Of a stretch of DNA of 40,696 bases, positions 17,587 through 18,306 are shown piece by piece. A program made the position numbers and the translations under genes. The first letter of the stretch is position 1, and each line of letters starts with the position of its first letter. The notes under the pieces are model-generated. The model had not been told where the DNA came from, made no database searches, and worked only from the letters and a program-made list of their open reading frames with translations. Origin of the DNA: a virus (Duplodnaviria > Heunggongvirae > Uroviricota > Caudoviricetes); IMG/VR virus record IMGVR_UViG_2541047870_000003; one strand, given 5' to 3'.

Positions 17587-17618
17587 AACCCGCCATCAAG
17601 CGGGTTTTGTTGTTATTG
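17587..17618 (+). terminator. Intrinsic terminator-like hairpin downstream of Q (AACCCGC-catcaa-GCGGGTT followed by TTGTTGTTATTG)
   Basis: Perfect 7-bp stem plus T-rich tail, seen directly. Confidence 0.5.
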
Positions 17619-17821
17619 TGGTGTGATATAAGAAACGACATTTAATATTGCCTTCAAAATAAATTTGTTTATATATTGTCGCGTATATTTTAAGTGAAGG
17701 TGAAATGTTCACATAAAATAAAAATACATAAATAAATTTACATAGCTTGACGCAAAGTGTTGTTGCGATTGGAATATTAAATTGTATCATCGAAAACGGT
17801 TCTGAGGGGGAACTCTTCTTT

Positions 17822-17903
17822 GCTCGGTGATATCGCTCGGTGATATCGCTCGGTGATATCGCTCGGTGATATCGCTCGGTGATATCGCTCGGTGATATCG
17901 CTC
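17822..17903. repeat. Perfect direct tandem repeat: 13-bp unit GCTCGGTGATATC x6 plus 4-nt partial copy; each unit has an EcoRV site
   Basis: Counted by hand from the sequence; units identical. Confidence 0.9.
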
Positions 17904-17918
17904 CCCTGAAGAACCAAT

Positions 17919-17994
17919 GCCGACTTAGCTCAGTAGGTAGAGCAACTGACTTGTAATCAGTAGGTCACCAGTTCGATTCCGGTAGTCGGCACCA
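17919..17994 (+). tRNA. tRNA-Thr (anticodon UGU), 76 nt including CCA
   Basis: 7-bp acceptor stem GCCGACT/AGTCGGC, D-arm GCTC-AGTAGGTA-GAGC, anticodon stem ACTGA/TCAGT with loop CTTGTAA, T-loop TTCGATT, 3' ACCA. Confidence 0.8.
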
Positions 17995-17997
17995 TAT

Positions 17998-18072
17998 GCG
18001 GGTATCGTATAATGGCTATTACCTCAGCCTTCCAAGCTGATGATGCGGGTTCGATTCCCGCTGCCCGCTCCA
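17998..18072 (+). tRNA. tRNA-Gly (anticodon UCC), near-identical to host glyT as I recall it
   Basis: Acceptor GCGGGTA/TGCCCGC, anticodon stem TCAGC/GCTGA with loop CTTCCAA, T-arm GCGGG-TTCGATT-CCCGC, 3' TCCA. Confidence 0.85.
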
Positions 18073-18280
18073 GTTAGAGTCTTTCAGTCTGCGATGATGG
18101 GAAATCCCGGAGTGACTGAAAGACGTTTAAGTTATGAATGATCGCTTTTTTTAGCAAAATTGCTGTGCAGAAATACTAACCTTCGGGCAGGCGATCATTC
18201 ATAAGCACTCTGCTTTTATTCCGATTAACTGTGGGTGGTTTGTTGGATAGAGTGCTTTCCTTACTGTATATATTGTTTCG

Positions 18281-18306
18281 CCCGCTTTTGCGGGCTTTTC
18301 TTTTCA
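18281..18306 (+). terminator. Intrinsic terminator (GCCCGC-tttt-GCGGGC followed by TTTTCTTTTC); candidate tR'-like terminator between tRNAs and holin
   Basis: Perfect 6-bp GC stem plus U-tract, seen directly. Confidence 0.6.

Follow-up and report, generated by a model that had tools for sequence, protein, structure and literature searches.

The closest described relatives of the region considered here, a gene-free stretch of ~860 nucleotides (nt) holding two tRNA genes between the Q-type antiterminator gene and the holin gene of an Escherichia coli lambdoid prophage, are found in phage 21, the Stx2a prophage Sp5/933W and Gifsy-1. The prophage is IMG/VR record IMGVR_UViG_2541047870_000003, a 40.7-kb sequence (40,696 nt) called the window throughout; positions refer to the whole of it, and Q, the holin gene, the tRNA genes and all the regulatory elements described below lie on its plus strand. 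The record of phage 21 annotates a -35 hexamer, two Q-binding element (QBE) repeats (ATTGAGCA and AATGAGCA), a -10 hexamer, a start, the pause element TAAGCTG and the terminator tR' within the 90 nt after Q21, and the late cassette is defined likewise by Yin et al. (10.1101/651190). The Stx2a prophage has the order Q, late promoter pR', StxS, tR', a tRNA promoter, ileZ-argN-argO, stx2AB and lysis genes. There, constitutive pR' gives a short terminated RNA in the lysogen, and a separate primary start mapped between tR' and the tRNAs appears to drive the latter (PMC7547250). In Gifsy-1, the short, terminator-ended RNA IsrK lies directly 3' of antQ, with some transcripts reading through, and AntQ, a relative of the window's Q, acts experimentally as an antiterminator (PMC4825925). 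Our literature searches on DUF1133, the family to which the window's Q belongs, and on the Thr–Gly tRNA pair returned nothing specific, and a search on ileZ/argN/argO gave only irrelevant returns.

Comparison with these systems suggests that the stretch between Q and holin comprises two adjacent transcription units, a Q regulatory cassette followed by an autonomous, moron-type tRNA cassette, a reading to which we give a probability of about 0.7. In the first unit, pR' at the Q stop codon (~17498–17537) would make a leader RNA in the lysogen that stops at hairpin 1, the tR' of this cassette. Q, once made, would load on polymerase at pR', and the loaded polymerase would ignore terminators. The second unit would consist of its own sigma-70 promoter, a leader helix with a 13-bp repeat, the two tRNAs, a trailer and a strong terminator. 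This promoter would supply the tRNAs in the lysogen, where they would be processed from a transcript of ~510 nt; on induction, Q-modified polymerase from pR' would cross tR', and then the tRNA unit with its terminator, and go on to transcribe the holin, endolysin, spanin and head genes. The phage tRNAs would add copies of two host tRNAs that are each single-copy, suiting phage codons. An initial annotation of this stretch had outlined a constitutive promoter, a short terminated tRNA transcript and readthrough by Q-modified polymerase. That outline holds, but the roles it gave to the promoters and to hairpin 1 have to be reassigned.

This layout is already known from phage 21, the Stx phages and Gifsy-1, and the window is an ordinary further example of it; its minor novelties are the conserved tRNA promoter, the leader helix and the variable repeat. 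Phage 21 shares the window's order of antiterminator, promoter (a candidate in the window) at the Q stop codon, terminator within ~50–110 nt, two tRNAs, a hairpin with a T-run and a class II holin. Its S21 holin gene and the 60 nt upstream are homologous to those of the window, and its hairpin and T-run occupy the same place as the window's terminator at 18280–18305. The tRNAs differ, being Asn and Thr in phage 21 and Thr(UGU) and Gly(UCC) in the window.

The open reading frame (ORF) at 16959–17501 is, judged by protein family profiles, a late-gene Q antiterminator of the DUF1133 type and a distant relative of Q21. It encodes 180 amino acids, and its GTG start overlaps the stop codon of the preceding ybcO-like gene. 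Among the profile matches of its product, that to Pfam DUF1133 stands at 1.4e-107, that to PHROG 753 ('anti-termination protein Q-like') at 3e-79 and a weak one, to PF06530 (the Q21 family), at 3.4e-6. The Q family profile also matches the Q21 crystal and cryo-EM chains 6jnx and 6p18 (E=5e-5), and the two Q proteins are ~40% identical over short stretches.

We collected 33 Enterobacteriaceae loci whose Q is 51–99% identical to that of the window. In almost all of them an AACCCGC-loop-GCGGGTT hairpin with a T-run behind it lies 60–120 nt after the Q stop codon. About 25 of the 33 also have in common, at fixed spacing, the pattern TTGnnn, 17 nt, TT(G/A/C)AAT, 5 nt, TA(N)(G/C)CT, with a terminator 60–105 nt farther on. 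The pattern overlaps the coding end in most loci, yet in four (the window, L018, L027 and L031) it lies beyond the stop codon with its spacing unchanged, so that coding does not account for its conservation. In the window, the candidate pR' (17498–17537) consists of TTGATT (17498–17503), which includes the TGA stop codon of Q, 17 nt, TTCAAT (17521–17526), 5 nt and TACGCT (17532–17537). The last of these, 5 nt 3' of the putative -10 and kept as TAnGCT, resembles the phage 21 pause element TAAGCT. Transcription is predicted to start at ~17531–17545, the exact register being inferred. A GTGAGCA motif found between -35 and -10 in the majority subgroup of the Q loci is absent from the window.

The predicted transcript ends at hairpin 1, an intrinsic terminator found by the terminator scan, with a core at 17587–17614 (AACCCGC-CATCAA-GCGGGTT followed by TTGTTGTT); it is most likely the tR' of the Q cassette. 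The lysogen should therefore, by analogy with lambda 6S RNA, StxS and IsrK (PMC7547250), make a leader RNA of ~70–85 nt. The 5' block of this leader (TACGCTTCGCAAAGCTGTATCGCGAGGCGAAT, 17532–17563) is kept in the window and in seven related loci (L007, L010, L016, L017, L027, L031 and L037), and possibly takes part in Q loading or pausing; the rest of the leader diverges. The predicted leader fold has a z-score of -4.7. A consensus fold for the window's subgroup contains only a 4-bp hairpin and the terminator, and the 8-bp 5' hairpin of the single-sequence fold is not clearly conserved. Rfam matches of the leader to STnc370 (30 bits), OrzO-P and isrK (14 bits) fell below the gathering score, were mostly terminator-driven and were not used.

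The antQ-isrK locus of Gifsy-1 resembles this predicted arrangement in having a DUF1133-type Q, then a promoter at the stop codon and a short terminated RNA, and differs in its downstream genes, orf45-anrP-isrJ in place of the tRNA unit and lysis genes. Two of our loci connect the two systems. In L008 and L011, with Q proteins 82–89% identical to the window's, Rfam isrK scores above its gathering threshold. The match begins 33 nt past the stop codon of Q, which is itself part of the -35 of a canonical TTGACT-18-TATATT promoter ending 7 nt before the match. The window leader holds the same position as IsrK and plausibly works like it. The Gifsy-1 isrK-orf45-anrP locus may itself be related to the c4-icd-ant immunity module of phage P1. 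In L008 (3075–3276) and L011 (3088–3268) a C4 antisense RNA, above its gathering score, overlaps or flanks isrK; the a1/b1 target family exceeds its gathering score in L008 only.

BLAST comparison of the region with phages and 5,426 complete E. coli genomes reveals a mosaic and separates the two modules. In phages, as in 1,196 of the E. coli genomes, Q-linked homology extends from Q to ~17614 and stops there, just past hairpin 1; most of these genomes match 17480–17614 at ~89% identity. This places hairpin 1 in the Q module rather than the tRNA module. The tRNA-linked homology begins at ~17904–17914 in phages with other Q genes, and in phi467 the tRNA segment is placed after stxAB.

These boundaries bear on the model of the initial annotation, in which hairpin 1 ends the early, Q-containing transcript, pR' lies within 17620–17800 and the tRNAs are transcribed between pR' and a tR' at 18280, in the manner of lambda 6S RNA. 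Such a model would account for the conserved promoter at 17763–17790 and the strong terminator after the tRNAs, and for the lack of a canonical -10 beside Q. Yet the unit of promoter, leader and tRNAs occurs alongside unrelated Q families and 3' of stxAB (after stxB in phi467), and so it can neither carry a Q-specific binding site nor be a Q-specific late promoter. The segment that always travels with the window's Q type is that from the Q stop codon through hairpin 1, Q-module homology runs through this hairpin, and the conserved promoter-like and pause-element-like pattern precedes it, at odds with its merely ending the Q transcript. Moreover, the proximal cassette is kept even though both the tRNAs and an AT-rich region of this kind are missing from most loci with this Q type; phage 21 and Gifsy-1 offer precedents for pR' at the Q stop codon. 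We consider the lambda 6S-like arrangement very unlikely. The Q-linked pattern instead points to pR' at ~17498–17537, upstream of hairpin 1, with the tRNAs downstream of tR' and not between pR' and tR'.

The AT-rich region upstream of the tRNA promoter (17615–17762) belongs to a stretch with a G+C content of 23–29% over 17600–17800. Our promoter scan placed a promoter at 17763–17790, with -35 TTGCGA (17763–17768), a 16-nt spacer and -10 TATCAT (17785–17790), from which a start at ~17797–17798 is predicted. To follow it across relatives we drew upstream types from more than 120 IMG/VR contigs with the joined Thr–Gly pair, together with Citrobacter braakii, ETEC1716 and phi467. The arrangement TTG(A/C)(A/G)N, 16 nt, TA(T/A)(T/C/G)AT is found in nine of nine distinct upstream types, 6–8 nt before GGYTCY, with unrelated spacers. 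In all nine the layout continues with GGYTCYGAGGGG, a variable stretch, CCCYGARGAACC, 3–7 nt and tRNA-Thr. We therefore read this element as a predicted sigma-70-type tRNA promoter, independent of pR'. The initial annotation had tentatively placed the late promoter within 17620–17800; a promoter is indeed conserved there, but the evidence does not support its being the late one. With the terminator at 18280–18305, it also makes plausible the earlier proposal that the lysogen produces the tRNAs from a short terminated transcript that needs no Q.

The same earlier work had singled out TTGACG at 17747–17752 and had been unable to pair it with a convincing -10. This hexamer is present, and its partner at 17 bp, TGGAAT, is indeed a poor -10; as no acceptable -10 lies 16–18 bp away in the window, we rejected it as a -35. 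Its equivalent in C. braakii reads TTGACA-18-AATAAT, matching 11 of 12 positions, and a weak second promoter may be present here. A motif ATTTACA-N4-5-TTGAC is partly conserved among the diverged upstream types; it may represent an UP-like element or, again, a second weak promoter. The top-scoring promoter of the scan, TCGGCA-16-TATAAT (17986–18013), was likewise set aside: it consists of the tRNA-Thr 3' end and the tRNA-Gly D-loop, and the same sequence occurs in host glyT.

Phage 21 supplies the precedent for a different view of this region, in which the tRNAs lack a functional promoter and are made strictly late, through Q readthrough of tR'. In that phage tRNA-Asn starts at the very next base after tR', which leaves no room for a separate promoter, and promoter-like matches are in any case common in AT-rich DNA (2.3 in shuffled sequences). 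In the window, by contrast, tR' and the first tRNA are ~300 nt apart, and the conserved promoter and structured leader lie in this interval. In nine upstream types with strongly diverged spacers, both hexamers, the 16 nt between them and their distance from the leader helix are preserved, and arrays that start with tRNA-Met have TTGCAG-17-TATTAT 8 nt before the tRNA. The Stx2a prophage, which resembles the window in placing its tRNAs between tR' and the late genes, has a tRNA start mapped in the corresponding interval (PMC7547250). That prophage differs in its Q subfamily, in its leader (258 nt, against ~80 nt in the window) and in its tRNAs, which read the rarest codons (ATA, AGA and AGG) and are followed by toxin genes. 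Strictly late expression of the window's tRNAs is thus unlikely, and the promoter at 17763–17790 remains our preferred origin of the tRNA transcript.

The predicted transcript opens with a structured pre-tRNA leader (17798–17915), in which a 5' arm, GGTTCTGAGGGGG (17798–17810), pairs with a 3' arm, CCCCTGAAGAACC (17903–17915), shortly before tRNA-Thr. The helix has 11 Watson–Crick or G.U pairs around an invariant tandem G.A, and it is contained in the minimum free energy (MFE) fold of 17797–18075. Because it begins at the predicted start, ~17797–17798, it fits a transcript that starts there. Across the nine aligned sequences 93.9% of helix cells are paired, compared with 28–71% when the partner strand is slid, and four pairs have changed on both sides, for example GGUUCU:AGAACC to GGCUCU:AGAGCC in L160. 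The loop of the helix holds a 13-bp tandem repeat, GCTCGGTGATATC, in 6.3 copies at 17822–17903 (Tandem Repeats Finder score 164, 100% matches). The copy number varies: 23 related loci have one copy, two have two, CP150019 (E. coli 2024CK-00188) has four, and six are found only in the window. In the predicted transcript the repeats pair mutually into a long hairpin.

ARAGORN found only two tRNA genes in the whole window, tRNA-Thr(UGU) at 17919–17994 and tRNA-Gly(UCC) at 17998–18072, both with an encoded 3' CCA. Both identities and anticodons agree with those of the initial annotation, and the Rfam tRNA model concurs with 73.8 and 63.4 bits, respectively (gathering score 29). RefSeq/GenBank records of near-identical prophages and of several phages already annotate the pair. 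tRNA-Thr(UGU) is identical to E. coli thrU over 76/76 positions, and tRNA-Gly(UCC) matches host glyT at 74/75, the single change, C6 to U, creating a U6.G67 wobble. In phage 683R6 (L001 2475–2546) a compensating change, G67 to A, restores a Watson–Crick pair, U6:A67, which argues that the acceptor stem of tRNA-Gly is under selection.

The near-identity to thrU and glyT raises the question of whether the pair is simply a neutral, recently captured copy of host tRNAs without phage function. In the host, both genes belong to the operon thrU-tyrU-glyT-thrT-tufB; the phage pair lacks tyrU and thrT, and its members are 3 nt apart rather than the 209 nt between host thrU and glyT. The promoter, leader and trailer of the phage pair are unrelated to those of the host operon, and the sequence between -10 and start is the AT-rich CGAAAAC in the phage and GCGCGC in the host. 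We discarded a shared capture of the pair together with host flanks, as there is no homology outside the mature tRNAs, which also speaks against recent neutral capture. The joined pair without tyrU is, moreover, widespread: ~1,160 additional copies occur among 5,421 E. coli genomes, besides those on the >120 IMG/VR contigs, and it comes with a conserved promoter and leader and with the compensatory U6.G67 to U6:A67 change. Neutral capture is scarcely credible as an explanation.

Downstream of tRNA-Gly lies a structured trailer of three long hairpins (18073–18262), followed by a strong intrinsic terminator (18280–18305; GCCCGC-TTTT-GCGGGC followed by TTTTCTTTT) with six G–C pairs and a 4-nt loop, ~60 nt before the holin start. 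The terminator scan of the window gave three sites, compared with 1.2 in shuffled sequences; among them are 17587–17614 and 18280–18305, the two terminators that the initial annotation had placed on either side of the tRNAs. The second is kept in phages 689R5 and phi467. Indeed, in almost all of ~30 downstream types a strong terminator occurs 207–403 nt after tRNA-Gly, and the tRNA unit is therefore regularly closed by one. The earlier proposal that Q-modified polymerase reads through into the lysis genes accords with the known processivity of Q, from which we infer that such polymerase would pass the terminator at 18280–18305, as it must to reach them. The terminators of the ~30 types have the form AACCGCC..GGCGGTT with a T-run, whatever sequence follows tRNA-Gly. 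In one of the loci (L049, 6505–6900) a weak sroB-like match, 31 bits and below threshold, adjoins the terminator.

The trailer is 95–100% conserved, and unannotated, in 540/5,426 E. coli genomes, and no Rfam family matches 18073–18280. On the plus strand, 18073–18310 folds with an MFE of -82 kcal/mol (z=-6.8). In a single diverged copy (L166, n=1) the substitutions cost the plus strand 10 kcal/mol, and the minus strand gains 1.4. This copy is from E. coli FDAARGOS_1257 (L166 547–700), where the same module of trailer, terminator and holin is preceded by tRNA-Ile; L166 also has an apparent, decayed glyT-like remnant 5' of the trailer, of which the 3' end alone aligns. It is conceivable, if doubtful, that the tRNA pair is one part of a widespread mobile RNA cassette in which the leader helix with its repeat and the structured trailer of 200–400 nt, always closed by a terminator, act in their own right. 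They might set tRNA dosage by serving as a platform for processing or stability, or a small RNA (sRNA) might be released from the transcript 3' end in lysogens.

We compared the codons of the phage genes in the window with those of 34 host core genes. ACA is used at 14.4 per 1000 in the phage and 6.9 per 1000 in the host, and GGA at 15.6 and 8.6 per 1000 (Fisher p ~2e-7 for each). Both codons, the subject of a comparison proposed with the initial annotation, are thus used at about twice the host frequency. ACT and GGG are also enriched in the phage, and ACC and GGC are depleted. tRNA-Thr reads ACA/ACU/ACG and tRNA-Gly reads GGA/GGG, and both host tRNAs are single-copy. The enrichment of ACA and GGA therefore means that extra copies of these tRNAs match phage codon preference. 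The idea of codon supply to late genes finds no specific support in these counts, and constitutive expression fits better than a specifically late role.

Several observations weigh against parts of the two-unit account. The promoter scan of the single sequence performs at chance level, with three promoters found and 2.3 expected in shuffled sequences, and the case rests on conservation across loci. The putative -10 of pR', TTCAAT, has no A at position 2, where one is usual, and was missed by the consensus scan. With TGC before it, TACGCT might be an (extended) -10 rather than a pause element, and the start would then shift by ~12 nt. No Q-binding element was recognised at the window's candidate pR', where the repeats of phage 21 are absent. 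The window leader (17535–17610) scores 14.4 bits with Rfam isrK (RF01394), whose gathering threshold is 50, and is not a member of that family. The covariation of the pre-tRNA leader comes from a hand-made alignment (A4) of nine sequences and is supportive, not proof. As to codons, AGA, AGG, ATA, CGA and TCA are more phage-enriched than ACA and GGA, and the enrichment of ACA is weaker in late than in early genes.

That other codons are more phage-enriched than ACA and GGA would suit another role for the tRNAs. In other systems phage tRNAs have been proposed to replace host tRNAs destroyed or inactivated during infection, and the pair might accordingly make good host tRNAs lost to tRNA-targeting toxins or defence nucleases rather than match codon usage. 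The phage copies are, however, the same as the host's (Thr) or altered in the acceptor stem only (Gly); being near-identical, they would be no less exposed to an anticodon nuclease, and only by adding to the supply could they help. Nor was a defence or toxin gene targeting tRNA-Thr or tRNA-Gly identified. We regard replacement as highly improbable.

The account given here would correct the map of regulation in a common type of E. coli prophage: the late switch, pR' with tR', is placed at the Q stop codon, and the tRNAs become a unit apart that the lysogen probably expresses. Lysogens, and not just induced cells, may in consequence have an increased dosage of thrU and glyT, and the short RNA from pR' becomes a candidate for a prophage sRNA comparable to StxS or IsrK. 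DUF1133 proteins, unnamed in RefSeq, can be annotated as Q antiterminators with their cassette. The current understanding of lambdoid regulation is unchanged.

Beyond the stretch itself, Q is preceded by a DUF1367 gene (16073–16672) and the ybcO-like nuclease gene (16672–16962). The first late gene downstream is the class II (phage-21-type) holin gene at 18365–18580, with a match to Pfam PF04971 at 1.4e-35. It is followed by a ydfR-like gene, lysozyme, Rz/Rz1 and trkG, and then by the terminase and head genes. The trkG potassium-transporter gene (20113–21588) lies directly 3' of Rz/Rz1, as in the Rac prophage, and its strongly AT-rich codon usage (ATA at 32 per 1000 over three moron-like genes) marks it as a foreign insert. 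Farther upstream, the ORF at 15398–15610 encodes a Hok/Gef-like toxin peptide and is so annotated by RefSeq in the near-identical prophage L005; strong Rfam matches to the sok antitoxin lie 5' of the DUF1367 gene in the related loci L010 and L011.

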